Assembly (NCBI RefSeq): GCF_988243305.1
Contig: NZ_OZ547136.1
Strand: one strand, 5' to 3'
DNA: 64,000 nucleotides
The first letter of the stretch is position 1. Every line of letters starts with the position of its first letter. A program made the translations under genes and the position numbers. Below, one piece after another: positions 3,261 to 29,986 of the stretch. The notes under the pieces are model-generated. The model was not told the origin of the DNA and ran no database searches. It saw nothing but the letters and a program-made list of their open reading frames with translations.

Positions 3261-4838
3261 ATGAATTCTTCCTTTGAATCTCTGATTGAACAGTATCCCT
3301 TACCCATTGCCGAACAGTTGCGCCACTGGGCGGCCCGTTATGCCTCGCGAATTGCCGTCGTTGATGCAAAGGGGTCGTTAACCTACAGCGCGCTTGATGC
3401 ACAAGTTGACGAACTTGCCGCAGGTCTGTCATCACTGGGTTTGCGTTCGGGGGAGCATGTAATTGTGCAGCTTCCCAACGACAATGCGTTTGTTACCCTG
3501 CTGTTCGCCTTGTTAAGACTGGGTGTTATCCCCGTGCTGGCGATGCCCTCGCAACGGGCGCTGGATATCGACGCGCTGATTGAGCTGGCGCAACCCGTCG
3601 CTTACGTTATTCACGGGGAAAACCACGCAGAGCTGGCCCGACAGATGGCGCACAAACACGCCTGCTTGCGTCATGTTCTGGTCGCTGGAGAGACCGTGAG
3701 CGACGATTTTACGCCGCTCTTCTCCCTTCACGGTGAGCGACAGGCATGGCCGCAGCCTGATGTTTCCGCCACCGCGTTGTTGTTGCTCTCAGGCGGCACA
3801 ACCGGCACGCCCAAACTCATCCCGCGCCGACATGCCGACTATAGCTATAACTTCAGCGCTTCTGCTGAACTGTGCGGCATCAGCCAACAGAGCGTGTATC
3901 TCGCCGTCCTCCCGGTGGCGCATAACTTTCCGCTGGCCTGCCCCGGTATTCTGGGAACGCTTGCCTGCGGCGGAAAAGTGGTGCTGACCGACAGCGCCAG
4001 CTGTGATGAGGTGATGCCTTTAATCGCGCAGGAAAGAGTGACTCACGTCGCCCTGGTTCCGGCGCTGGCGCAATTATGGGTGCAGGCCAGGGAGTGGGAA
4101 GACAGCGACCTTTCGTCGCTGCGCGTCATTCAGGCAGGCGGCGCCCGGCTCGACCCGACGCTTGCTGAGCAGGTTATCGCCACCTTTGACTGTACCCTGC
4201 AACAGGTTTTCGGTATGGCGGAAGGCCTGCTCTGTTTTACCCGGCTGGACGATCCGCATGCCACCATTCTCCACAGCCAGGGGCGCCCGTTGTCCCCTCT
4301 GGATGAAATCCGCATCGTTGATCAAGACGAGAACGACGTCGCGCCGGGCGAAACCGGGCAATTGTTAACGCGCGGCCCTTATACCATTTCGGGCTATTAC
4401 CGCGCCCCTGCCCACAACGCGCAGGCCTTTACCGCGCAAGGGTTTTACCGCACAGGCGACAATGTCAGGCTGGATGAGGTGGGGAACCTGCACGTTGAGG
4501 GACGCATAAAAGAGCAGATCAACCGCGCCGGAGAAAAAATAGCCGCGGCTGAAGTGGAATCGGCACTGCTGCGTTTAGCGGAAGTGCAAGATTGCGCGGT
4601 GGTCGCCGCGCCGGACACGCTGCTTGGCGAGCGGATTTGCGCGTTTATCATCGCGCAGCAGGTGCCAACTGACTATCAGCAGTTGCGTCAACAACTGACC
4701 CGTATGGGGCTCAGCGCGTGGAAAATTCCTGACCAAATCGAGTTTCTGGACCACTGGCCGCTCACCGCCGTCGGCAAGATAGACAAAAAACGCCTGACGG
4801 CTCTCGCCGTCGACCGTTATCGCCATTCTGCCCAATAA
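3261..4838 (+). CDS. ybtE: Salicyl-AMP ligase YbtE (525 aa)
   Basis: Adenylate-forming enzyme motifs (LLLSGGTTGTPKLIP, YRTGD, GKIDKK); operon position. Confidence 0.85.
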   Translation: MNSSFESLIEQYPLPIAEQLRHWAARYASRIAVVDAKGSLTYSALDAQVDELAAGLSSLGLRSGEHVIVQLPNDNAFVTLLFALLRLGVIPVLAMPSQRALDIDALIELAQPVAYVIHGENHAELARQMAHKHACLRHVLVAGETVSDDFTPLFSLHGERQAWPQPDVSATALLLLSGGTTGTPKLIPRRHADYSYNFSASAELCGISQQSVYLAVLPVAHNFPLACPGILGTLACGGKVVLTDSASCDEVMPLIAQERVTHVALVPALAQLWVQAREWEDSDLSSLRVIQAGGARLDPTLAEQVIATFDCTLQQVFGMAEGLLCFTRLDDPHATILHSQGRPLSPLDEIRIVDQDENDVAPGETGQLLTRGPYTISGYYRAPAHNAQAFTAQGFYRTGDNVRLDEVGNLHVEGRIKEQINRAGEKIAAAEVESALLRLAEVQDCAVVAAPDTLLGERICAFIIAQQVPTDYQQLRQQLTRMGLSAWKIPDQIEFLDHWPLTAVGKIDKKRLTALAVDRYRHSAQ

Positions 4839-4847
4839 GCGCAAACC

Positions 4848-4883
4848 GACCCGAAACAGGTTGAAATAAACCCGTTTCGGGTA
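4848..4883. promoter_or_regulatory. Inverted repeat GACCCGAAAC-N-GTTTCGGGT between ybtE and fyuA; candidate YbtA-binding repeat or ybtE terminator
   Basis: Perfect 9-10 bp inverted repeat read directly; assignment to YbtA is inference from known AraC-type regulation of fyuA. Confidence 0.3.
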
Positions 4884-4894
4884 GCACTACTATT

Positions 4895-4915
4895 AGAAAT
4901 AGTTATCATTTTCAA
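4895..4915 (+). promoter_or_regulatory. Candidate Fur box upstream of fyuA
   Basis: AAATAGTTATCATTTTCAA resembles the Fur consensus GATAATGATAATCATTATC; fyuA is iron-regulated. Confidence 0.35.
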
Positions 4916-4968
4916 TTCACCATTGTCGGTATTTTTGGCGTTTCGCCGTCTTACAGGGACTCACAACA

Positions 4969-6990
4969 ATGAAAATGACACGGCTTTATCCTCTGGCCTT
5001 GGGGGGATTATTGCTCCCCGCCATTGCTAATGCCCAGACTTCACAGCAAGACGAAAGCACGCTGGTGGTTACCGCCAGTAAACAATCTTCCCGCTCGGCA
5101 TCAGCCAACAACGTCTCGTCTACTGTTGTCAGCGCGCCGGAATTAAGCGACGCCGGCGTCACCGCCAGCGACAAACTCCCCAGAGTCTTGCCCGGGCTCA
5201 ATATTGAAAATAGCGGCAACATGCTTTTTTCGACGATCTCGCTACGCGGCGTCTCTTCAGCGCAGGACTTCTATAACCCCGCCGTCACCCTGTATGTCGA
5301 TGGCGTCCCTCAGCTTTCCACCAACACCATCCAGGCGCTTACCGATGTGCAAAGCGTGGAGTTGCTGCGAGGCCCACAGGGAACGTTATATGGCAAAAGC
5401 GCTCAGGGCGGGATCATCAACATCGTCACCCAGCAGCCGGACAGCACGCCGCGCGGCTATATTGAAGGCGGCGTCAGTAGCCGCGACAGTTATCGAAGTA
5501 AGTTCAACCTGAGCGGCCCCATTCAGGATGGCCTGCTGTACGGCAGCGTCACCCTGTTACGCCAGGTTGATGACGGCGACATGATTAACCCCGCGACGGG
5601 AAGCGATGACTTAGGCGGCACCCGCGCCAGCATAGGGAATGTGAAACTGCGTCTGGCGCCGGACGATCAGCCCTGGGAAATGGGCTTTGCCGCCTCACGC
5701 GAATGTACCCGCGCCACCCAGGACGCCTATGTGGGATGGAATGATATTAAGGGCCGTAAGCTGTCGATCAGCGATGGTTCACCAGACCCGTACATGCGGC
5801 GCTGCACTGACAGCCAGACCCTGAGTGGGAAATACACCACCGATGACTGGGTTTTCAACCTGATCAGCGCCTGGCAGCAGCAGCATTATTCGCGCACCTT
5901 CCCTTCCGGTTCGTTAATCGTCAATATGCCTCAGCGCTGGAATCAGGATGTGCAGGAGCTGCGCGCCGCAACCCTGGGCGATGCGCGTACCGTTGATATG
6001 GTGTTTGGGCTGTACCGGCAGAACACCCGCGAGAAGTTAAATTCAGCCTACGACATGCCGACAATGCCTTATTTAAGCAGTACCGGCTATACCACCGCTG
6101 AAACGCTGGCCGCATACAGTGACCTGACCTGGCATTTAACCGATCGTTTTGATATCGGCGGCGGCGTGCGCTTCTCGCATGATAAATCCAGTACACAATA
6201 TCACGGCAGCATGCTCGGCAACCCGTTTGGCGACCAGGGTAAGAGCAATGACGATCAGGTGCTCGGGCAGCTATCCGCAGGCTATATGCTGACCGATGAC
6301 TGGAGAGTGTATACCCGTGTAGCCCAGGGATATAAACCTTCCGGGTACAACATCGTGCCTACTGCGGGTCTTGATGCCAAACCGTTCGTCGCCGAGAAAT
6401 CCATCAACTATGAACTTGGCACCCGCTACGAAACCGCTGACGTCACGCTGCAAGCCGCGACGTTTTATACCCACACCAAAGACATGCAGCTTTACTCTGG
6501 CCCGGTCGAGATGCAGACATTAAGCAATGCGGGTAAAGCCGACGCCACCGGCGTTGAGCTTGAAGCGAAGTGGCGGTTTGCGCCAGGCTGGTCATGGGAT
6601 ATCAATGGCAACGTGATCCGTTCCGAATTCACCAATGACAGTGAGTTGTATCACGGTAACCGGGTGCCGTTCGTACCACGTTATGGCGCGGGAAGCAGCG
6701 TGAACGGCGTGATTGATACGCGCTATGGCGCACTGATGCCCCGACTGGCGGTTAATCTGGTCGGGCCGCATTATTTCGATGGCGACAACCAGTTGCGGCA
6801 AGGCACCTATGCCACCCTGGACAGCAGCCTGGGCTGGCAGGCGACTGAACGGATGAACATTTCCGTCTATGTCGATAACCTGTTCGACCGTCGTTACCGT
6901 ACCTATGGCTACATGAACGGCAGCAGCGCCGTCGCGCAGGTCAATATGGGTCGCACCGTCGGTATCAATACGCGAATTGATTTCTTCTGA
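4969..6990 (+). CDS. fyuA: TonB-dependent yersiniabactin/pesticin outer-membrane receptor FyuA (673 aa)
   Basis: Signal peptide, TonB-box region and C-terminal beta-barrel ending in aromatic residue F; 673 aa as expected. Confidence 0.9.
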   Translation: MKMTRLYPLALGGLLLPAIANAQTSQQDESTLVVTASKQSSRSASANNVSSTVVSAPELSDAGVTASDKLPRVLPGLNIENSGNMLFSTISLRGVSSAQDFYNPAVTLYVDGVPQLSTNTIQALTDVQSVELLRGPQGTLYGKSAQGGIINIVTQQPDSTPRGYIEGGVSSRDSYRSKFNLSGPIQDGLLYGSVTLLRQVDDGDMINPATGSDDLGGTRASIGNVKLRLAPDDQPWEMGFAASRECTRATQDAYVGWNDIKGRKLSISDGSPDPYMRRCTDSQTLSGKYTTDDWVFNLISAWQQQHYSRTFPSGSLIVNMPQRWNQDVQELRAATLGDARTVDMVFGLYRQNTREKLNSAYDMPTMPYLSSTGYTTAETLAAYSDLTWHLTDRFDIGGGVRFSHDKSSTQYHGSMLGNPFGDQGKSNDDQVLGQLSAGYMLTDDWRVYTRVAQGYKPSGYNIVPTAGLDAKPFVAEKSINYELGTRYETADVTLQAATFYTHTKDMQLYSGPVEMQTLSNAGKADATGVELEAKWRFAPGWSWDINGNVIRSEFTNDSELYHGNRVPFVPRYGAGSSVNGVIDTRYGALMPRLAVNLVGPHYFDGDNQLRQGTYATLDSSLGWQATERMNISVYVDNLFDRRYRTYGYMNGSSAVAQVNMGRTVGINTRIDFF

Positions 6991-6996
6991 TTATTG

Positions 6997-7027
6997 TAAA
7001 AGGGATACCGAAAAGGTATCCCTTTTA
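6997..7027 (+). terminator. Rho-independent terminator after fyuA
   Basis: AAAAGGGATACC-GAAA-AGGTATCCCTTTT hairpin directly after the stop codon. Confidence 0.6.
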
Positions 7028-7775
7028 CACCACTAGTTAAAACCAGTAACTCAGCAGAGTCGCAAAAAATATTAATCCATAGTGATTATTTAAACAATGA
7101 AATTGCGATTAGGATAAATAGATTTAACTTTCTCGTTCCTTTCTCTCCTTATACTAAAGAAATAATCATATCAAAATAAAAATTCACAACAGTGCAACAT
7201 TAAAAAATACAACCAACAAACAATCCTATATACAAGGCACATCTCCAGAATATAAAAGCACAGACAAACAACCTAAAAAAAACAACCCCATACATATAAA
7301 TTATTTTATAGGTAAAATAGATTATATATTCTCATAGCTACCACAAACTATACTAGCCTGAACTATATTTATTCTGCTGCAATCAATGCATACATAACAC
7401 AAATATCACTCAGGTACACTACTCAAACCACGCTGGGATTTTTCCTCAAGTTATAATCATCACCCCGAAAATCATTCGGCATTTACTCATTAAATAGTCA
7501 CCCCATAGGCCTGTACATGTTTACTCAGAAATATACATCCTTTTCTCTGTCATAAACCCTCTAATTAATCATAAATAAATACTTGTGACACCAATCTTTT
7601 TCCTTAACGGAACGAATTGTTGTGTAGAAGGAGATAATATTATGTCAAAAAAAATATCAGCCATTGCTTATAACTCATTATATGTCAACATGGGTCACTA
7701 TAACGGAAGCAGTTGAGATCACTACCAAAGCCATAAAACAAAAAAATTACTCCTAGCGATATTTATCGTCATGCC

Positions 7776-10484
7776 TTGAGTGGCAACATCCTACTATCGG
7801 TCTATTTCCAGTCTCCTGTGATACTTAAGAAGATACAAACTTTTAATGGAAAAATAAAATTCAGGCAGTTTGTGGGAGACCTACTTGATAAACTATGCAT
7901 GCTTGACAGGGACGGTTTTATTTATGGTCAAAATTTAAGACTCTGTACAGAAGCTAGATATATTTGTCCTGTGCAACAAATTATAGATACCCCCCTGTTA
8001 CGCAAACTCAACCAGTTTCGTACGTTTGTTCGTAATGTCCGCCCGGGTGATGAACTGGATGTCCCGGCACAAGTTAGTGAAAAAAATTTAACCCCGCCGC
8101 CGGGTAACAGCAGTGGCAACCTTGAGCAACAGATAGCCAGTACTTCACAGCTAATTGGATCTCTGCTCGCCGAAGATATGAACAGCGAGCAAGCGGCAAA
8201 CATAGCACGTGGATGGGCCTCTTCTCAGGCTTCAGGGGTAATGACAGACTGGTTAAGCCGCTTCGGTACCGCAAGAATCACGCTGGGCGTGGATGAAGAT
8301 TTCAGCCTGAAGAACTCCCGTGACGGCAACCCTCGAAAATGGCGATTCGATGCAACAAACAGTGAACTATGTGCCGAACGTCACGAATGCTGAAATCACG
8401 CTGGCAGCCTCGAAGGACCCGGTGATTGCCGACAATAACGATCTCACGACACTAACAGCACCGTCGCTGATACAGAGGGCAATGCGATAGCCAACACTGA
8501 GGTAACATTTACTCTACCGGAAGATGTGAAGGCGAACTTCACGCTGAGCGATGGCGACAAAGCGGTTACTGATGCCGATGGCAAAGCGAAAGTCACGCTG
8601 AAAGGTACAAAAGCAGGCGCTCATACCGTGACAGCATCGATGGTTGGCGGTAAGAGTGAGCAGTTGGTGGTGAACTTTACTGCGGATACGCTCACTACGC
8701 AGGTTAATCTTAACGTTACCGAGGACAATTTCATCGCCAATAACATTGGAATGACCAGGCTACAGGCAACAGTGACTGATGGAAACGGCAACCCAGTAGA
8801 AGGTATAAAAGTTAATTTCCGTGGAACCTCCGTCACGCTAAGCAGCACCAGCGTTGAAACGGATGATCAGGTTTTCGCTGAAATTCTTGTGACAAGCACC
8901 GAGGTCGGACTAAAAACAGTTTCAGCCTCTCTGGCAGATAAACCTACTGAAGTCATCTCGCGATTACTGAATGCCAAGGTAGATGTTAATTCTGCGACGA
9001 TTACCAGTCAGGAGATACCTGAAGGTCAGGTCATGGTCGCACAAGACATAGCAGTTAAAGCTCACGTTAACGACCAGTTTGGCAACCCGGTGACGCATCA
9101 ACCCGCGACATTCAGTGCAGCGCCATCCTCGCAAATGATCATCAGCCAGAATACGGTCTCTACTAATACGCAGGGAGTAGCCGAGGTCACCATGACGCCT
9201 GAAAGAAACGGCTCGTATACTGTAAAAGCATCCCTAGCGAATGGAGCTTCACTTGAGAAACAACTGGAGGCTATTGATGAAAAACTGACACTCACGTCCA
9301 GTCCGCTTATCGGTGTCAATGCTCCTAAAGGCGCTACTCTGACGGCAATGCTAACCTCTGCAAATGGCACTCCAGTGGAGGGTCAGGTCATCAACTTTAG
9401 CGTAACGCTAGAAGGTGCGACGTTAAGTGGCGGAAAAGTGAGAACCAACTCTTCAGGTCAGGCTCCAGTCGTTCTGACCAGCAATAAAGTCGGTACATAT
9501 ACGGTGACTGCATCGTTCCATAACGGCGTCACAATACAGACACAGACAACCGTGAAGGTTACTGGCAACCCAAGCACCGCACATGTTGCTAGCTTTATCG
9601 CTGAACCGTCGACTATCGCCGCCACCAACAGTGATTTAAGTACCTTAAAGGCAACGGTTGAGGATGGCAGTGGTAACCTGATCGAAGGTCTCACTGTGTA
9701 CTTCGCCTTAAAAAACGGCTCCACCACATTAACGTCATTAACAGCGGTGACCGATCAAAACGGAATCGCGACAACAAGCGTGAAAGGAGCGATAACGGGG
9801 AGCGTCACTGTAAGCACAGTCACAAGCGCAGGTGGAATGCAAACAGTAGATATATCGCTAGTGGCAGGCCCAGCAGACGCCTCGCAGTCCATCCTTAAGA
9901 ACAACCAGTCATCACTGAAAGGGGACTTTACCGATAGTGCTGAGCTACATCTTGTTCTGCACGATATATCAGGCAATCCGATCAAAGTTTCTGAAGGGAT
10001 GGAATTTGTGCAATCAGGTACAAACGTGCCCTATATGAAAATTAGCGCAATTGATTACACTCAAAATATCAACGGTGATTACAAAGCTACTGTTACAGGA
10101 GACGGAGAGGGTATCGCAACGCTGATCCCCGTATTGAATGGTGTTCATCAGGCGGGCCTGAGTACCACGATAGAATTCATTAGCGCGGAAACCAGACCAA
10201 TGACGGGTACAGTGTCAGTGAATAGTGCAAACCTACCGACAGCTTCATTCCCTTCGCAGGGATTTACCGGGGCGTATTATCAGTTGAATAATGACAACTT
10301 TGCACCAGGAAAAACGGCGGCTGATTATTCGTTTTCAAGCTCGGCCTCCTGGGTAGGCGTTGATGCTACTGGTAAAGTGACATTCAAAAATGACGGTGAT
10401 AGCAATACAGTAATAATCACAGCGCCCCCAAGATCCGGTGGTGCTATTTACCAAACAGTTCCTCCTGAATCGCGTTCGGTGTGA
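7776..10484 (+). pseudogene. yeeJ: Decayed inverse-autotransporter adhesin gene (yeeJ-like): N-terminal segment fused by a large internal deletion to C-terminal Big-domain repeats, with frameshift and premature stop
   Basis: ORF 7776-8393 has the LysM-linker/beta-domain start (LRKLNQFRTF...DELDVPAQVSEK...ARITLGVDEDFSLKNS); alternate frame at 8355-8460 continues as Big-repeat sequence (MQQTVNYVPNVTNAEITLAASKDP); one-base frameshift near 8459; ORF 8526-10484 is Big-repeat-rich and ends early. Total ~2.7 kb versus ~7 kb for the intact gene. Confidence 0.65.
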
Positions 10485-10611
10485 CTATGATCATTTTCGG
10501 TGAGTATTGCTTTGATCCAAAGGCTGGTTTTCTGTGATGATTGACCAGCCTCAGAGTATTGATGACACCACCGTTCATAACAGATCGGCATTACTATGCA
10601 TAAGTACTGCC

Positions 10612-11664
10612 TCAAATTCTCGCCAAAACACTTTTTAATGCCTTTGCGAATTCATCCAGACTTATATTGTCAATTTTTTGCCCAACGACGACTGACTCCG
10701 AAACATCGGCCATTGCGGGCCATCGCGTTTTGTAATCAGCATAAATTGCAACAACAGGGGTATTATAGGCACTTGCCATATGTAATATTGAGGTGTCAGG
10801 AGTTATTGCAATATAAGCATCTTTTATGATTGCTGCTGAACGTTTAATCGAGGGTGATAAGGATAAACGGTAGACATTATTATAACAATCCACTAATGCC
10901 CTGGCTTTATCTTCCCCTTTGGGTCCATAAACGATCACTATTGGAATATCTGTTTCACTTTGAATTTTTGCTATTAGATTTTCTGCAATCGATAATGAAA
11001 ATGTACGTTCCTGCGAGCTACCGTCTAAATTGAGCGCAATGTAAGATCCTAACGATCGCATTTCCTCGCGTACCTCATCGAGTACATCATCGCTTAATGG
11101 CAATTCATATATTGACCTGACTACCGGAAAACCCGCCTCACGCATCATAAATGCCCATGTCATGGGTACAGGAGTCCGGAGATTCTGATCCATCCGGGAC
11201 GCGTTCTTACACAAAGGGGAATAGCACTTCATGGTTAAACCGACGACCTGGAAATTCGTTTTTGCTTTCAACTGACTGATAAATATCATCGTTTTCAGGT
11301 TCTTTTTACGCATCGCCTCTATACAAAGATCCGGCGTACCGTATTGCAGTGTTATATTCTTCGCTAAATCTTTTATTTCTTTTAATGTTGCGTGATCCTG
11401 CATAGTCATTGTGACTAATGTTAATTTAGTCTGTTCAAGTTTGAGCGCATTAAAGACTTCTAAATTAATTGTCGACGTAACAATTAATAGATGCTTAATT
11501 TTATGCAATTCAAGCGCCCGAATAACAGGAAAGATGGCCATAGCATCGCCAATCTGATCGGGAATATGTATGACAACAAAGTCTGTTTTTTCAATATTAA
11601 AATTATAAGCTTTATAATCGTAGTAACTAAATGCAATACGTCTCAACAATGATACTAAAAACAT
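10612..11664 (-). CDS. yeeL: Putative glycosyltransferase (family 9 heptosyltransferase-like), 350 aa
   Basis: Intact ORF, ATG at 11664 (MFLVSLLRR); conserved position between yeeJ and shiA. Track ORF starts at an upstream TTG. Confidence 0.55.
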   Translation of the reverse strand: MFLVSLLRRIAFSYYDYKAYNFNIEKTDFVVIHIPDQIGDAMAIFPVIRALELHKIKHLLIVTSTINLEVFNALKLEQTKLTLVTMTMQDHATLKEIKDLAKNITLQYGTPDLCIEAMRKKNLKTMIFISQLKAKTNFQVVGLTMKCYSPLCKNASRMDQNLRTPVPMTWAFMMREAGFPVVRSIYELPLSDDVLDEVREEMRSLGSYIALNLDGSSQERTFSLSIAENLIAKIQSETDIPIVIVYGPKGEDKARALVDCYNNVYRLSLSPSIKRSAAIIKDAYIAITPDTSILHMASAYNTPVVAIYADYKTRWPAMADVSESVVVGQKIDNISLDEFAKALKSVLARI

Positions 11665-11978
11665 AACTAACCTCGCCTCCCTACTGGTTATAATGCAATG
11701 CAGTCTATCAGAATCATCAGGGTGCAATTTTGTGCATATGCGGACTTTTATGTTTCATATCTCGAACCTGTGGGCCATCTGCTTAATCCTTAAACAACAC
11801 CAGCAACTCCTGCGCTTTCATCTTCCATCGAATTTTTCATGTTGCCGCTAATCAGCCATAAAATCATTTGCAGATGCGCTCTGTCGAGGTAGTCTCATAA
11901 GGTTCGTTTATAGATCGACGGCAATGTGAGTTACCTTTTCCATACTAATTATAAAAAGACAGTACAAACAGGATCATT

Positions 11979-13295
11979 ATGGACTCCACGCTCATCTCCA
12001 CTCGTCCCGATGAAGGGACGCTTTCGTTAAGTCGCGCCCGACGAGCTGCGTTAGGCAGTTTCGCTGGTGCCGTCGTCGACTGGTATGATTTTTTACTCTA
12101 TGGCATTACCGCCGCACTGGTGTTTAATCGCGAGTTTTTCCCGCAAGTAAGCCCGGCGATGGGAACGCTCGCCGCATTTGCCACCTTTGGTGTCGGCTTC
12201 CTTTTCCGACCGCTCGGCGGTGTCATTTTCGGTCACTTTGGTGACCGACTGGGACGTAAGCGCATGTTAATGCTGACCGTCTGGATGATGGGCATCGCGA
12301 CAGCCTTGATTGGTATTCTTCCTTCATTCTCGACCATTGGGTGGTGGGCACCTATTTTGCTGGTGACACTGCGTGCCATTCAGGGATTTGCCGTCGGCGG
12401 CGAATGGGGAGGCGCAGCGTTGCTTTCCGTTGAAAGTGCGCCGAAAAATAAAAAAGCCTTTTACAGTAGCGGTGTACAAGTTGGCTACGGAGTAGGTTTA
12501 CTGCTTTCAACCGGACTGGTTTCATTGATCAGTATGATGACGACTGACGTACAGTTTTTAAGCTGGGGCTGGCGCATTCCTTTCCTGTTTAGCATCGTAC
12601 TGGTACTGGGAGCATTGTGGGTGCGCAATGGCATGGAGGAGTCCGCGGAATTTGAACAACAGCAACATAATCAAGCGGCCGCGAAAAAACGCATCCCGGT
12701 TATCGAAGCTCTGTTACGACATCCCGGTGCTTTCCTGAAGATTATTGCGCTACGACTGTGCGAGTTGCTGACGATGTACATCGTTACCGCCTTTGCACTT
12801 AATTATTCAACCCAGAATATGGGGTTACCGCGCGAACTTTTCCTTAATATTGGTTTGCTGGTAGGTGGATTAAGCTGCCTGACAATTCCCTGTTTTGCCT
12901 GGCTTGCCGATCGTTTTGGTCGCCGCAGGTTTTATATCACAGGTGCGTTAATCGGAATGTTGAGCGCATTTCCTTTCTTTATGGCGCTTGAAGCACAATC
13001 TATTTTCTGGATAGTTTTCTTCTCCATAATGCTGGCAAACATTGCGCATGACATGGTGGTGTGTGTGCAACAACCGATGTTTACCGAAATGTTTGGTGCC
13101 AGTTATCGCTATAGTGGCGCTGGAGTCGGTTATCAGGTTGCCAGTGTGGTTGGTGGTGGATTTACACCTTTTATTGCCGCTGCACTCATCACTTACTTTG
13201 CCGGGAACTGGCATAGCGTCGCCATTTATTTGCTGGCTGGATGCCTGATTTCCGCAATAACCGCTTTGTTGATGAAAGACAATCAACGCGCTTGA
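11979..13295 (+). CDS. shiA: Shikimate transporter ShiA (MFS, 438 aa)
   Basis: 12-TM MFS protein with GxLaDRxGRR motifs; length and neighbourhood match. Confidence 0.85.
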   Translation: MDSTLISTRPDEGTLSLSRARRAALGSFAGAVVDWYDFLLYGITAALVFNREFFPQVSPAMGTLAAFATFGVGFLFRPLGGVIFGHFGDRLGRKRMLMLTVWMMGIATALIGILPSFSTIGWWAPILLVTLRAIQGFAVGGEWGGAALLSVESAPKNKKAFYSSGVQVGYGVGLLLSTGLVSLISMMTTDVQFLSWGWRIPFLFSIVLVLGALWVRNGMEESAEFEQQQHNQAAAKKRIPVIEALLRHPGAFLKIIALRLCELLTMYIVTAFALNYSTQNMGLPRELFLNIGLLVGGLSCLTIPCFAWLADRFGRRRFYITGALIGMLSAFPFFMALEAQSIFWIVFFSIMLANIAHDMVVCVQQPMFTEMFGASYRYSGAGVGYQVASVVGGGFTPFIAAALITYFAGNWHSVAIYLLAGCLISAITALLMKDNQRA

Positions 13296-13396
13296 TAGCC
13301 TGGCGAAGATCATCCGATCTTCGCCTTACACTTTTGTTTCACATTCCTGTGACATACTATCGGATGTGCGGTAATTGTATGGAACAGGAGACACAC

Positions 13397-14851
13397 ATGA
13401 ATAATAAGGGCTCCGGTCTGACCCCAGCTCAGGCACTGGATAAACTCGACGCGCTGTATGAGCAATCTGTAGTTGCTTTACGCAACGCCATTGGCAACTA
13501 TATTACAAGTGGCGAATTACCTGATGAAAACGCCCGCAAACAAGGTCTTTTTGTCTATCCATCACTGACCGTAACTTGGGATGGTAGCACAACCAATCCC
13601 CCTAAAACGCGCGCATTTGGTCGTTTTACTCACGCAGGCAGCTACACCACCACGATTACTCGCCCTACTCTCTTTCGTTCGTATCTCAATGAACAACTTA
13701 CGTTGCTGTATCAGGATTATGGTGCGCATATCTCGGTGCAACCCTCGCAGCATGAAATCCCTTATCCTTATGTCATTGATGGCTCTGAATTGACACTTGA
13801 TCGCTCAATGAGCGCTGGGTTAACTCGCTATTTCCCGACAACAGAACTGGCGCAAATTGGCGATGAAACTGCAGACGGCATTTATCATCCAACTGAATTC
13901 TCCCCGCTATCGCATTTTGATGCGCGCCGCGTCGATTTTTCCCTCGCGCGGTTGCGCCATTATACCGGTACGCCAGTTGAACATTTTCAGCCGTTCGTCT
14001 TGTTTACCAACTACACACGTTATGTGGATGAATTCGTTCGTTGGGGATGCAGCCAGATCCTCGATCCTGATAGTCCCTACATTGCCCTTTCTTGTGCTGG
14101 CGGGAACTGGATCACCGCCGAAACCGAAGCGCCAGAAGAAGCCATTTCCGACCTTGCATGGAAAAAACACCAGATGCCCGCGTGGCATTTAATTACCGCC
14201 GATGGTCAGGGTATTACTCTGGTGAATATTGGCGTGGGACCGTCAAATGCTAAAACCATCTGCGATCATCTGGCAGTACTACGCCCGGATGTCTGGTTGA
14301 TGATTGGTCACTGTGGTGGCTTACGTGAAAGCCAGGCCATTGGCGATTATGTACTTGCACATGCTTATTTACGCGATGATCACGTTCTTGATGCGGTTCT
14401 GCCGCCCGATATTCCTATTCCAAGCATTGCTGAAGTGCAACGTGCGCTTTATGACGCTACCAAGTTAGTCAGCGGCAGGCCCGGTGAGGAAGTCAAACAG
14501 CGGCTGCGTACAGGTACTGTGGTAACCACAGATGACAGGAACTGGGAATTACGTTACTCAGCTTCTGCACTTCGTTTTAACTTAAGCCGGGCCGTGGCAA
14601 TTGATATGGAAAGTGCAACCATTGCCGCGCAAGGATATCGTTTCCGCGTGCCATACGGGACACTACTGTGTGTTTCAGATAAACCGTTGCATGGCGAGAT
14701 TAAACTTCCCGGCCAGGCTAACCGTTTTTATGAAGGCGCTATTTCCGAACACCTGCAAATTGGCATTCGGGCGATCGATTTGCTGCGCGCAGAAGGCGAC
14801 CGACTGCATTCACGTAAATTACGAACCTTTAATGAGCCGCCGTTCCGATAA
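13397..14851 (+). CDS. amn: AMP nucleosidase (484 aa)
   Basis: ATG at 13397 (MNNKGSGLTPAQALDKLD) gives 484 aa; track ORF from 13241 is an upstream in-frame extension. Confidence 0.85.
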   Translation: MNNKGSGLTPAQALDKLDALYEQSVVALRNAIGNYITSGELPDENARKQGLFVYPSLTVTWDGSTTNPPKTRAFGRFTHAGSYTTTITRPTLFRSYLNEQLTLLYQDYGAHISVQPSQHEIPYPYVIDGSELTLDRSMSAGLTRYFPTTELAQIGDETADGIYHPTEFSPLSHFDARRVDFSLARLRHYTGTPVEHFQPFVLFTNYTRYVDEFVRWGCSQILDPDSPYIALSCAGGNWITAETEAPEEAISDLAWKKHQMPAWHLITADGQGITLVNIGVGPSNAKTICDHLAVLRPDVWLMIGHCGGLRESQAIGDYVLAHAYLRDDHVLDAVLPPDIPIPSIAEVQRALYDATKLVSGRPGEEVKQRLRTGTVVTTDDRNWELRYSASALRFNLSRAVAIDMESATIAAQGYRFRVPYGTLLCVSDKPLHGEIKLPGQANRFYEGAISEHLQIGIRAIDLLRAEGDRLHSRKLRTFNEPPFR

Positions 14852-16364: not shown

Positions 16365-16440
16365 TGGCTCCTCTGACTGGACTCGAACCAGTGACATACG
16401 GATTAACAGTCCGCCGTTCTACCGACTGAACTACAGAGGA
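16365..16440 (-). tRNA. asnW: tRNA-Asn (GUU)
   Basis: Reverse complement of TCCTCTGTAGTTCAGTCGGTAGAACGGCGGACTGTTAATCCGTATGTCACTGGTTCGAGTCCAGTCAGAGGAGCCA; symbol assigned from gene order. Confidence 0.9.
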
Positions 16441-18188: not shown

Positions 18189-18264
18189 TCCTCTGTAGTT
18201 CAGTCGGTAGAACGGCGGACTGTTAATCCGTATGTCACTGGTTCGAGTCCAGTCAGAGGAGCCA
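18189..18264 (+). tRNA. asnU: tRNA-Asn (GUU)
   Basis: 76-nt sequence identical to the other two copies, ending CCA; anticodon loop CUGUUAA. Confidence 0.9.
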
Positions 18265-20596: not shown

Positions 20597-20672
20597 TCCT
20601 CTGTAGTTCAGTCGGTAGAACGGCGGACTGTTAATCCGTATGTCACTGGTTCGAGTCCAGTCAGAGGAGCCA
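20597..20672 (+). tRNA. asnV: tRNA-Asn (GUU)
   Basis: Third identical 76-nt tRNA-Asn copy. Confidence 0.9.

Positions 20673-27258: not shown

Positions 27259-29986
<2,728 letters not shown>

Follow-up and report, generated by a model that had tools for sequence, protein, structure and literature searches.

The fyuA-Side End of the Island

The window (a stretch of 64,000 nucleotides from contig NZ_OZ547136.1, RefSeq assembly GCF_988243305.1) begins within the yersiniabactin island (HPI), the left end of which lies outside it. Two ORFs (3261-4838 and 4969-6990) are annotated as ybtE and fyuA in genome MLI109, which is 100% identical to the window over 6900-11000. The FyuA protein of the window exactly matches the protein that the sources name FyuA, and corresponds to WP_000784549.1, annotated as fyuA in MLI109; its protein cluster lists E. 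coli, Klebsiella, and Salmonella names and offered no Yersinia member for follow-up. In MLI109 the full irp1-irp2-ybtA-ybtPQXS-int set is located farther upstream of ybtE and fyuA, and the island is found at the asnT locus with a tandem element between; the order is mtfA, asnT, an integrase, a second island of ~26 kb, the HPI integrase, and the ybt genes. The features at the fyuA-side border are collected in Table 1.

Table 1. Features at the border between the HPI and the chromosomal backbone (window coordinates)
Feature	Position	Strand	Evidence or remark
fyuA, yersiniabactin/pesticin receptor, last HPI core gene	4969..6990	+	673-aa ORF
AT-rich island DNA, 1007 bp, from the beginning of the conjugative (ICE) section in an ICE-type HPI	6991..7997	+	GC 30-33%; ICE homology
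Perfect hairpin directly 3' of the fyuA stop, AAAAGGGATACC / loop GAAAA / GGTATCCCTTTT	6998..7026	+	Read from the sequence; kept in ICE-type loci
Site of ~220 bp of missing ICE-type spacer, between 7275 and 7276	7264..7288	.	Multiple alignment with L003, L008, and L011
First ICE gene after fyuA, 5' part only (356 nt); the gene of ICE-type HPIs encodes a 308-aa hypothetical protein (WP_000039781.1)	7642..7997	+	Alignments
Longest open frame across junction A, 205 codons, TTG start	7776..8393	+	Starts inside island DNA
Junction A, island DNA to yeeJ nt 276/277	7997..7998	.	Three-way alignment; microhomology of at most 1 bp
yeeJ fragment 1, nt 277-607 (codons 93-202)	7998..8319	+	92.8% identity to K-12 yeeJ
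Junction B, internal out-of-frame deletion	8319..8320	.	3692 nt vs K-12, 3989 nt vs Santai
yeeJ fragment 2, K-12 nt ~4300-4775 (Big repeat)	8320..8794	+	94.9% identity to K-12
1-bp deletion, K-12 GCAACAGTC vs window GCACCGTC	8460..8462	+	Three-way alignment
Open frame, 673 codons, with Big_1, Invasin_D3, and Invasin_D4 domains	8463..10484	+	Pfam; listed as ORF 8526-10484 from the first GTG
Crossover zone of an in-frame 312-bp loss, one Big repeat vs K-12, in the repeated motif AACGGCAACCC	8765..8794	+	Overlapping blast pieces, three-way alignment
Junction D, 3' deletion	10456..10457	.	763 bp vs Santai-type allele (337 nt coding + 426 nt downstream)
Glycosyltransferase family 9 (GT9) gene (yeeL-like), first intact backbone gene after the remnant	10612..11664	-	97.4% identity to K-12 across 10461-11000

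The hairpin that follows fyuA is probably its terminator, a predicted function; the terminator scan missed it because the T-run forms part of the stem. A 21-nt query taken from the hairpin and compared with genome contigs returned only three Clostridia metagenome-assembled contigs, which are otherwise dissimilar to the window.

GC content falls from 55-60% in fyuA to 30-33% across ~7000-7750 and is ~50% beyond. The segment 6991-7997 has no match in K-12; it is 98.5-99.2% identical to the ICE-type HPI of E. coli 32-4 (L003) and to two further ICE loci (L008 and L011), from contigs or chromosomes of up to 5.3 Mb. Alignment with these ICE-type loci assigns the AT-rich DNA 3' of fyuA to the island. 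An initial annotation, made from the sequence, had described ~780 bp of AT-rich non-coding DNA here; the composition holds, but the segment is 1007 bp long and carries a piece of an ICE gene. The site at which the ICE-type spacer is shortened is bordered by imperfect A-rich direct repeats (AAAAAAACAACCC). The ICE gene fragment is frameshifted, with one extra A in the run at 7647-7654 and another in the run at 7740-7746; one-base indels also toggle this gene between ICEEc1 and ICEEh1 (PMC2801613). Pfam and NCBIfam searches with the 308-aa protein gave no family. An Rfam search of 6991-10484 at the gathering threshold found nothing, and promoter and terminator consensus scans gave fewer sites than shuffled controls; nothing therefore points to a hidden RNA or a regulatory element within the AT-rich DNA.

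When the window is aligned to the ICE-type HPI and to intact yeeJ, island homology stops exactly where yeeJ homology starts (junction A). Together with the end of fyuA, the drop in GC content, and the division of the yeeJ homology into separate pieces, this bears out the earlier view of an HPI right junction beside a decayed yeeJ. The yeeJ side has lost attR, the spacer between asnT and yeeJ, and yeeJ nt 1-275, and with them the promoter, start codon, and signal peptide; on the island side, all ICE DNA past codon 117 of the first ICE gene is gone. No attR-like copy of the asn-tRNA 3' end (16 nt, up to three mismatches) was found between fyuA and yeeJ, the only matches being the three downstream asn tRNA genes (16.4, 18.2, and 20.6 kb). 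In other HPI-positive genomes the frame across junction A is intact, in about half of the sampled haplotypes, as a chimera of 249-252 aa (codons 1-117 of the ICE ORF in frame with YeeJ 93-202, plus 24 out-of-frame residues). RefSeq names this chimera 'inverse autotransporter beta domain-containing protein'; in MLI109 it is annotated as a frameshifted pseudogene.

The yeeJ Remnant

Alignment to three intact yeeJ genes (K-12-type L002, O157:H16 Santai L021, and MS14387 L022) identifies the copy in the window as a derivative with several deletions and a frameshift, not as an intact allele of another kind. The yeeJ-derived DNA runs from 7998 to 10456, 2.46 kb in total (the ~2.7 kb first proposed was an overestimate), and matches K-12 yeeJ nt 276-607, 4301-4775, and 5058-6734 at 92-95% DNA identity. 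It bears five lesions: the loss at junction A, a ~3.7-kb deletion, a 1-bp deletion, one missing Big repeat, and a 3' deletion. The initial annotation had an N-terminal segment, from ~7776, joined to Big repeats. The join of a yeeJ segment to Big repeats is real, but the yeeJ DNA lacks the true N-terminus: it begins with LRKLNQF inside the LysM region and retains the second half of that region together with the linker and the opening strands of the beta-domain (domain layout, with signal peptide and LysM, from PMC5595812). A 9-bp deletion within this fragment, at ~8032, is polymorphic among HPI-positive strains, the 9 bp being retained in L020 and BCE049.

The deletion at junction B, which had been placed near 8340-8360 and lies 20-40 bp to the left of that position, takes out the beta-barrel and about nine Big repeats. 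Its consequence is evident from the Pfam profile for the inverse autotransporter barrel (PF11924, IAT_beta), which matches K-12 YeeJ over positions 2-279 with 377 bits and the remnant over positions 3-64 of 279 with 30.5 bits; the barrel is missing, as had been suspected. Fragment 2 is in a different frame from fragment 1 up to the 1-bp deletion at ~8461, which restores the frame of fragment 1, although a stop at 8391-8393 intervenes. This one-base frameshift, foreseen near 8459, is common to all eight aligned HPI-positive haplotypes (there is no indel column at that site). The 312-bp loss may reflect repeat copy-number variation rather than decay. Junction D, where the gap relative to K-12 is 453 bp, removes the last ~113 codons, which encode the C-terminal lectin-type region; past the junction the frame reads VPPESRSV and then meets a TGA stop at 10482-10484. 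The premature stop reported at 10484 is therefore present, but it results from a 3' deletion that carries the frame into DNA situated 3' of yeeJ at intact loci, and not from a point nonsense mutation.

The long open frame of the remnant is without start context, signal peptide, or membrane anchor. It contains five Big_1 stretches (8463-10481), compared with 14 in K-12 YeeJ, and these are unlinked to any secretion domain. Among the features that define YeeJ, a passenger of Big_1/invasin-type Ig repeats is present; the signal peptide, complete LysM region, beta-barrel, C-type-lectin-like end, and single reading frame are absent, and what is left is spread over three frames. The region is annotated as two pseudogenes in MLI109.

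Polymorphism among eight HPI-positive haplotypes gives 32 nonsynonymous and 13 synonymous differences in the Big-repeat ORF (pN/pS 0.81; p=0.49 against neutrality), compared with five and 23 in shiA (pN/pS 0.07; Fisher p=1e-5 for the two genes). Further lesions are found in other HPI-positive lineages (stops at 9786, TGA, and 9993, TAA; loss of 1 bp at 10332; and, in BCE049, loss of 468 bp), and among the seven other haplotypes the Big-repeat frame has a premature stop in five and a 1-bp deletion in the remaining two. The remnant is a neutrally drifting, non-functional pseudogene, and its decay is ongoing in HPI-positive lineages; the loss of the secretion parts, the three frames, and the new stops and deletions uphold the initial judgment that the adhesin does not function.

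The neighboring GT9 gene shows a pN/pS of 0.95 among HPI-positive haplotypes and a dN/dS of 0.12-0.30 between old alleles (from genomes with full-length yeeJ). It is conceivable, though quite doubtful, that selection on this intact gene was relaxed by the loss of yeeJ; if so, the GT9 protein would act specifically with YeeJ, perhaps as a heptosyltransferase that glycosylates the adhesin. Aah and TibC glycosylate classical autotransporters. No link between yeeL and yeeJ was found in the literature. A weaker idea still is the possibility that the chimera of ICE ORF and YeeJ, switched by A-tract length, is expressed and has some function.

Linkage to the Island and Competing Explanations

Among 5426 complete E. 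coli genomes, fyuA is present in 2266, junction A in 2070, and junction B in 2056, so that the common-type structure occurs in ~38% of the genomes. The complete 6900-11000 arrangement recurs with 98.8-100% identity in 2040 of the 5426, which indicates that it is not due to chance; in 1978 genomes it is conserved at 99% or more. In the HPI-negative genomes that were sampled, each junction probe (A and B) is only half covered, and neither junction is found in any credible HPI-negative genome. An intermediate in which an intact beta-barrel follows junction A was sought with a synthetic probe, and no such genome turned up among the 5426.

Following up the top matches to the synthetic probe brought out four HPI-negative assemblies, BHUCD01, VE-V11-M, HS-02, and Z1323PEC0010, in which a full-length yeeJ contains segments of the HPI type. 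In these mosaics the change from one allele to the other falls no more than 32 and 16 bp from the deletion junctions; outside the HPI-type segments the gene is identical to K-12 or to a natural allele that is common; and derived stops and deletions are shared with particular HPI-positive sublineages. We read the four as artefacts of reference-guided consensus or polishing. An ancestral, pre-insertion allele was rejected on the ground that the derived stops and deletions tie the HPI-type segments to particular HPI-positive sublineages, and true recombinational loss of the HPI is unlikely given switches 16-32 bp from the junctions and filled segments equal to K-12 or the common allele. If the assemblies are genuine, the linkage between lesions and island is not absolute.

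The right border is very probably the immobilized fyuA-side end of the common E. coli type of HPI, carrying a multi-lesion yeeJ haplotype of single origin that hitch-hikes with the island. It might instead be argued that yeeJ was a pseudogene before the HPI arrived, with only junction A related to the island and the other lesions pre-existing. Frameshifted or truncated yeeJ has been reported at the normal position also (PMC5595812), the intermediate with junction A and an intact barrel is absent among the 5426 genomes, and in the four exceptional assemblies a gene of full length has the 1-bp frameshift. However, junction B is fully covered in no more genomes than junction A, every sampled HPI-negative genome covers just half of the junction B probe, and the exceptional assemblies bear the signature of reference-guided consensus or polishing rather than of an ancestral allele. 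Decay also demonstrably continues after junction A formed, and we consider prior inactivation of yeeJ unlikely.

Two further explanations have a negligible probability. The well-formed Big_1, Invasin_D3, and Invasin_D4 domains of the 652/673-codon open frame, and the strong conservation of the arrangement in 1978 genomes, might suggest an intact shorter yeeJ allele or a functional short Big-repeat protein; such a protein would have no signal peptide, beta-barrel, or C-terminal lectin-type region, its coding sequence is divided over three frames, and its pN/pS does not differ from neutral, while that of the adjacent shiA is 0.07. The stop or 1-bp deletion in each of the seven other haplotypes and the RefSeq annotation as a pseudogene also count against it, and the conservation can be put down to the island having spread recently along with its flanks (PMC2606025). 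Equally improbable is that the deletions are assembly artefacts caused by collapse of near-identical Big repeats. The gene is highly repetitive, mis-assembly has been documented for upaH in CFT073 (cited in PMC5595812), and the 312 bp lost correspond to exactly one repeat. Junctions A, B, and D, though, join non-repeated sequences at clean breakpoints and recur in more than 2000 independently assembled complete genomes, so copy-number variation can account only for the one-repeat difference.

The immobilized border would have formed from an ICE-type island, with its ybt-fyuA cluster, that once lay at asnT beside yeeJ; this progenitor is inferred from ~1 kb of shared DNA. One illegitimate deletion would then have joined the first ICE gene after fyuA to yeeJ codon 93; the island lost everything past codon 117 of that gene, along with attR, and the chromosome lost the spacer between asnT and yeeJ as well as yeeJ nt 1-275. 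The island would be unable to excise because attR was lost, and yeeJ would be dead because its promoter, start codon, and signal peptide were lost. Internal lesions could have arisen before, with, or after the border deletion; their order is left to inference because no genome among the 5426 combines junction A with an intact beta-barrel. The multi-lesion haplotype probably arose once and would since have been carried through E. coli along with the island, by homologous recombination in the flanking DNA, the mode proposed by Schubert et al. (2009), the remnant hitch-hiking with a selected siderophore island.

Relation to Known Islands and Significance

The border structure was already described by Schubert et al. 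(2009) and Martinez-Gil et al. (2017), and is real but ordinary. A deletion at the fyuA border that is unique, removes the direct repeat, and reaches the backbone is found in all ECOR HPI-positive strains except ECOR31 (PMC2606025); truncation of yeeJ has been linked to the HPI at asnT (PMC5595812); and loss of attR hinders excision (bioRxiv 10.1101/2025.09.17.676721). The border shows no essential difference from that of the common E. coli-type HPI (Schubert et al. 1999, 2004, 2009; PMC2606025): both have the ybt-fyuA core with a short piece of AT-rich DNA behind it, both have lost attR, and in both the deletion extends into the adjoining backbone. Nearly all HPI-positive E. coli have this structure, 2070 of the 2266 complete genomes with fyuA. 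Our analysis adds base-level breakpoints (7997|7998, 8319|8320, ~8461, 8765-8794, and 10456|10457) and the in-frame fusion of the ICE gene to yeeJ codon 93.

In ICE-type HPIs (ICEEc1 of ECOR31, ICEKp1 of Klebsiella, and ICEEh1 of Enterobacter hormaechei; PMC2801613), of which the 1007 bp 3' of fyuA represent the start of the ICE part, fyuA is followed by the 308-aa ORF, AlpA, DUF2857, TraR, and a VirB-type secretion module. The window instead passes directly from the 1007 bp to backbone; AlpA, DUF2857, TraR, the VirB-type secretion system, MobC, ArdC, and attR (~27 kb in strain 32-4) are absent. In the chromosome the remnant takes the place of K-12 yeeJ, which encodes an inverse autotransporter (type Ve) adhesin (Martinez-Gil et al. 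2017; PMC5595812), and the GT9 gene and shiA follow downstream. Compared with the K-12 protein, it is without the signal peptide, the 12-stranded beta-barrel, and the C-type-lectin end, has only half of the LysM region, and is about nine Big repeats short; it is a pseudogene derived from the YeeJ family, not a working member.

The practical gain is a limited one and concerns users of genome data: the exact breakpoints can serve as a marker for the common-type HPI. RefSeq entries at this locus named 'inverse autotransporter beta domain-containing protein' or 'Ig-like domain-containing protein' are fragments of a dead gene, and caution is needed with a few 'complete' assemblies that look reference-filled at yeeJ. 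For the biology of E. coli, the border explains two published points. One is that the yersiniabactin island is locked in the chromosome: with attR gone it cannot excise, so that its only route of spread is homologous recombination that takes the flanks along. The other is the absence of the YeeJ biofilm adhesin from HPI-positive, mostly extraintestinal pathogenic strains.

Border between the high-pathogenicity island and yeeJ

The right end of the yersiniabactin high-pathogenicity island (HPI) adjoins a decayed copy of the inverse autotransporter adhesin gene yeeJ, as the initial annotation held; only pieces of intact yeeJ align there. Beyond fyuA, GC content drops from 55-60% to 30-33% across ~7000-7750 and then returns to ~50%. 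Identity to the ICE-type HPI (the form with a conjugative part beyond fyuA) of E. coli 32-4, and to two further ICE loci (L008 and L011), is 98.5-99.2% over 6800-8003; this match indicates that the AT-rich stretch is island DNA, which extends to 7997. ICE-type elements carry, in order, fyuA, a ~870-bp spacer, a 308-aa gene without known function, AlpA, DUF2857, TraR, and a VirB-type secretion module. In the window, the spacer is ~220 bp shorter and the 308-aa gene is cut down to its first 356 nt (7642-7997), so the stretch is AT-rich as described but not simply non-coding. Island homology ends exactly where yeeJ homology starts, with at most one base in common, and the attachment repeat, a copy of the asn-tRNA 3′ end, is absent between fyuA and yeeJ.

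In strain 32-4 (NZ_CP048310.1) the ICE part 3′ of fyuA totals ~27 kb; this ICE-type HPI carries a complete VirB/Mob module as well as a type I restriction-modification system and is inserted at asnV, adjoining ldtA, like that described for ECOR31. A 21-mer of the fyuA hairpin is present in L008 and L011. A scan of species-representative genome contigs with this 21-nt sequence returned only three Clostridia MAG contigs, otherwise dissimilar; either no genome of that set has the island or carriers went undetected in the scan.

Features of the window (positions in nucleotides)
Feature	Position	Strand	Remarks
fyuA	4969-6990		ORF
Perfect hairpin	6998-7026		3′ of fyuA stop codon
Spacer loss, ~220 bp	7264-7288		relative to ICE-type elements; between imperfect A-rich direct repeats
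Lesion A	7997|7998		island/yeeJ junction; yeeJ nt 1-275 gone
yeeJ piece	7998-8319		yeeJ nt 277-607
Lesion B	8319|8320		clean out-of-frame deletion, 3692 nt relative to K-12
yeeJ piece	8320-8794		K-12 nt ~4300-4775
Frameshift	~8461		1 base absent
Lesion C			in-frame loss of one 312-bp Big repeat; crossover within repeated motif AACGGCAACCC
yeeJ piece	8765-10456		K-12 nt 5058 onward
Lesion D	10456|10457		clean 3′ deletion, 763 bp relative to Santai-type allele
GT9 (family-9 glycosyltransferase gene)	10612-11664	-	ORF intact in window
asn tRNA gene (asnW by position)	16365-16440	-	
asn tRNA gene	18189-18264	+	
asn tRNA gene	20597-20672	+	
507-aa ORF	within 27915-29528		followed at once by Rfam group II intron match RF00029 (64.9 bits)
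IS102 RNA	within 38612-41955		Rfam match (253 bits); overlaps start of 1091-aa ORF
sRNA STnc240	59230-59304	-	Rfam match
Histidine operon leader	62042-62165	+	Rfam match

The remnant was aligned with three intact references, a K-12-type locus (asnT, a 313-bp spacer, and a 7077-nt yeeJ) and the full-length alleles Santai and MS14387; against each it is a deletion/frameshift derivative matching in pieces only. An N-terminal segment is indeed joined to C-terminal Big repeats, at 8319|8320 rather than at 8340-8360, but this segment itself lacks the start of the gene, with homology beginning at nt 277. The one-base frameshift proposed near 8459 is confirmed. Up to lesion D the window matches Santai-type C-terminal sequence (...RSGGAIYQT), after which eight further codons lead to a stop at 10482-10484; the premature stop is thus real and arises through the 3′ deletion. 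Backbone homology restarts at 10457/10461, in DNA that lies 3′ of the yeeJ stop codon at intact loci.

Pfam analysis left five Big_1 stretches (fourteen in K-12 YeeJ) and only profile positions 3-64 of 279 of the beta-domain, in agreement with the predicted absence of the barrel. The published YeeJ map runs from a signal peptide through LysM, the beta-barrel, and the Big repeats to a C-type lectin end (PMC5595812); compared with it, the remnant keeps only half of LysM and has lost the signal peptide, barrel, and lectin end.

The border deletion also put the ICE gene in frame with yeeJ codon 93. The resulting chimeric ORF (249-252 aa) is intact in four of the seven other HPI-positive genomes fetched (L016, L018, L019, and L020, around 3740-4497); in the window the chimera (7642-8393) is broken by one extra A in each of the runs 7647-7654 and 7740-7746, and A-tract length changes (A7/A8 and A6/A7, respectively) shorten or break it in the remaining HPI-positive genomes. 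By eye, its N-terminal part has the look of an excisionase/AlpA-type helix-turn-helix; a family search gave no match.

Distribution and continuing decay

Among 5426 complete E. coli genomes, the whole arrangement (6900-11000) occurs in 2040 at 98.8-100% identity. The fyuA 3′ end is found in 2266, a 160-bp probe spanning lesion A in 2070, and a probe spanning lesion B in 2056; in the HPI-negative genomes sampled, matches to either probe are limited to the yeeJ half. A synthetic intermediate that joins junction A to an undeleted barrel is covered in none of the 5426. Given the linked counts and the lack of an intermediate, the lesions form one haplotype and may have arisen in any order. About 196 of the 2266 fyuA-positive genomes do not have the common junction and may carry ICE-type HPI or other variants.

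Polymorphism was assessed in an alignment of eight HPI-positive haplotypes (3900-14000). The Big-repeat frame (8463-10484) has 32 nonsynonymous (N) and 13 synonymous (S) changes (pN/pS 0.81; binomial p=0.49 against neutrality), whereas shiA has N=5 and S=23 (pN/pS 0.07; Fisher p=1e-5 versus the Big frame); for fyuA, N=7 and S=7 (pN/pS 0.31). Further inactivating changes in haplotypes other than that of the window include TGA at 9786 (four haplotypes), TAA at 9993 (two aligned haplotypes and BCE049), a 1-bp deletion at 10332 (two haplotypes), and a 468-bp deletion (8300-8767) in BCE049; a 9-bp deletion at ~8032 is polymorphic in HPI-positive strains. The remnant behaves as a still-decaying pseudogene; together with the lost domains, this supports the earlier view that the adhesin is non-functional.

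In four HPI-negative RefSeq "complete" assemblies (BHUCD01, Z1323PEC0010, VE-V11-M, and HS-02), asnT directly precedes a full-length mosaic yeeJ. Where these mosaic genes align with the remnant they are 99-100% HPI-type, with the 1-bp frameshift and lineage-specific stops; segments absent in HPI-positive strains are identical to K-12 or a common natural allele, and the allele switches lie 16-32 bp or less from the deletion junctions. The island could truly have been lost through recombination; on these sequence patterns we read the mosaics as probable products of consensus building guided by a reference, or of polishing with reads that did not match.

In all HPI-positive ECOR strains but ECOR31 the island is at asnT with a fyuA-side border deletion that takes away the direct repeat and extends into the backbone, and it is argued to have spread together with its flanks via homologous recombination (Schubert et al. 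2009, PMC2606025). yeeJ adjoins asnT, and HPI insertion there has been proposed to account for the many truncated-yeeJ strains; CFT073 was classed yeeJ-negative (Martinez-Gil et al. 2017, PMC5595812). ICE variants, including 1-bp indels in the first gene 3′ of fyuA, are also described (Paauw et al. 2010, PMC2801613). The border and remnant were correctly recognized but are a published structure, and, being present in ~38% of complete E. coli genomes, of low interest.

Other features of the window

In strain MLI109, which is 100% identical to the window over 6900-11000, RefSeq places two pseudogenes after fyuA, the first named [quoted passage not shown] and the second "Ig-like domain-containing protein, frameshifted; incomplete"; the family-9 glycosyltransferase gene, shiA, and amn come next. 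The strain has a second, ~26-kb integrative element between asnT and the HPI integrase (NZ_CP117008.1 2066370-2092726), giving two islands in tandem at asnT; the element bears integrase, type III restriction-modification, MobQ relaxase, RepL, and radical SAM genes.

The three asn tRNA genes in the window are directly followed by their usual backbone ORFs (yeeO, cbl/nac, and ldtA/cobT, by position in the annotation of the K-12-type locus and 32-4), so no island occupies these sites; no pks island lies at asnW (by position) within the window. The 507-aa ORF and adjoining RNA match are probably a group II intron with maturase in the variable region that follows the cob genes, and the 1091-aa ORF, judged by position and size, probably encodes an autotransporter of the antigen-43 type within a CP4-44-like element. 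The histidine operon leader places the window's end at the his operon.

The neighboring glycosyltransferase gene

NCBIfam links the GT9 product only to LPS heptosyltransferase I, with a weak match confined to that family's C-terminal half. Across old alleles (window, K-12, Santai, and MS14387) dN/dS of the gene is 0.12-0.30; among the eight HPI-positive haplotypes variation looks neutral (N=17, S=5, pN/pS 0.95, against 0.07 in adjoining shiA). Selection on GT9 may have been relaxed following yeeJ loss, as these few sequences suggest, although K-12 is a counter-case with yeeJ intact and GT9 broken. Such relaxation, if true, would hint at a functional tie between GT9 and YeeJ.
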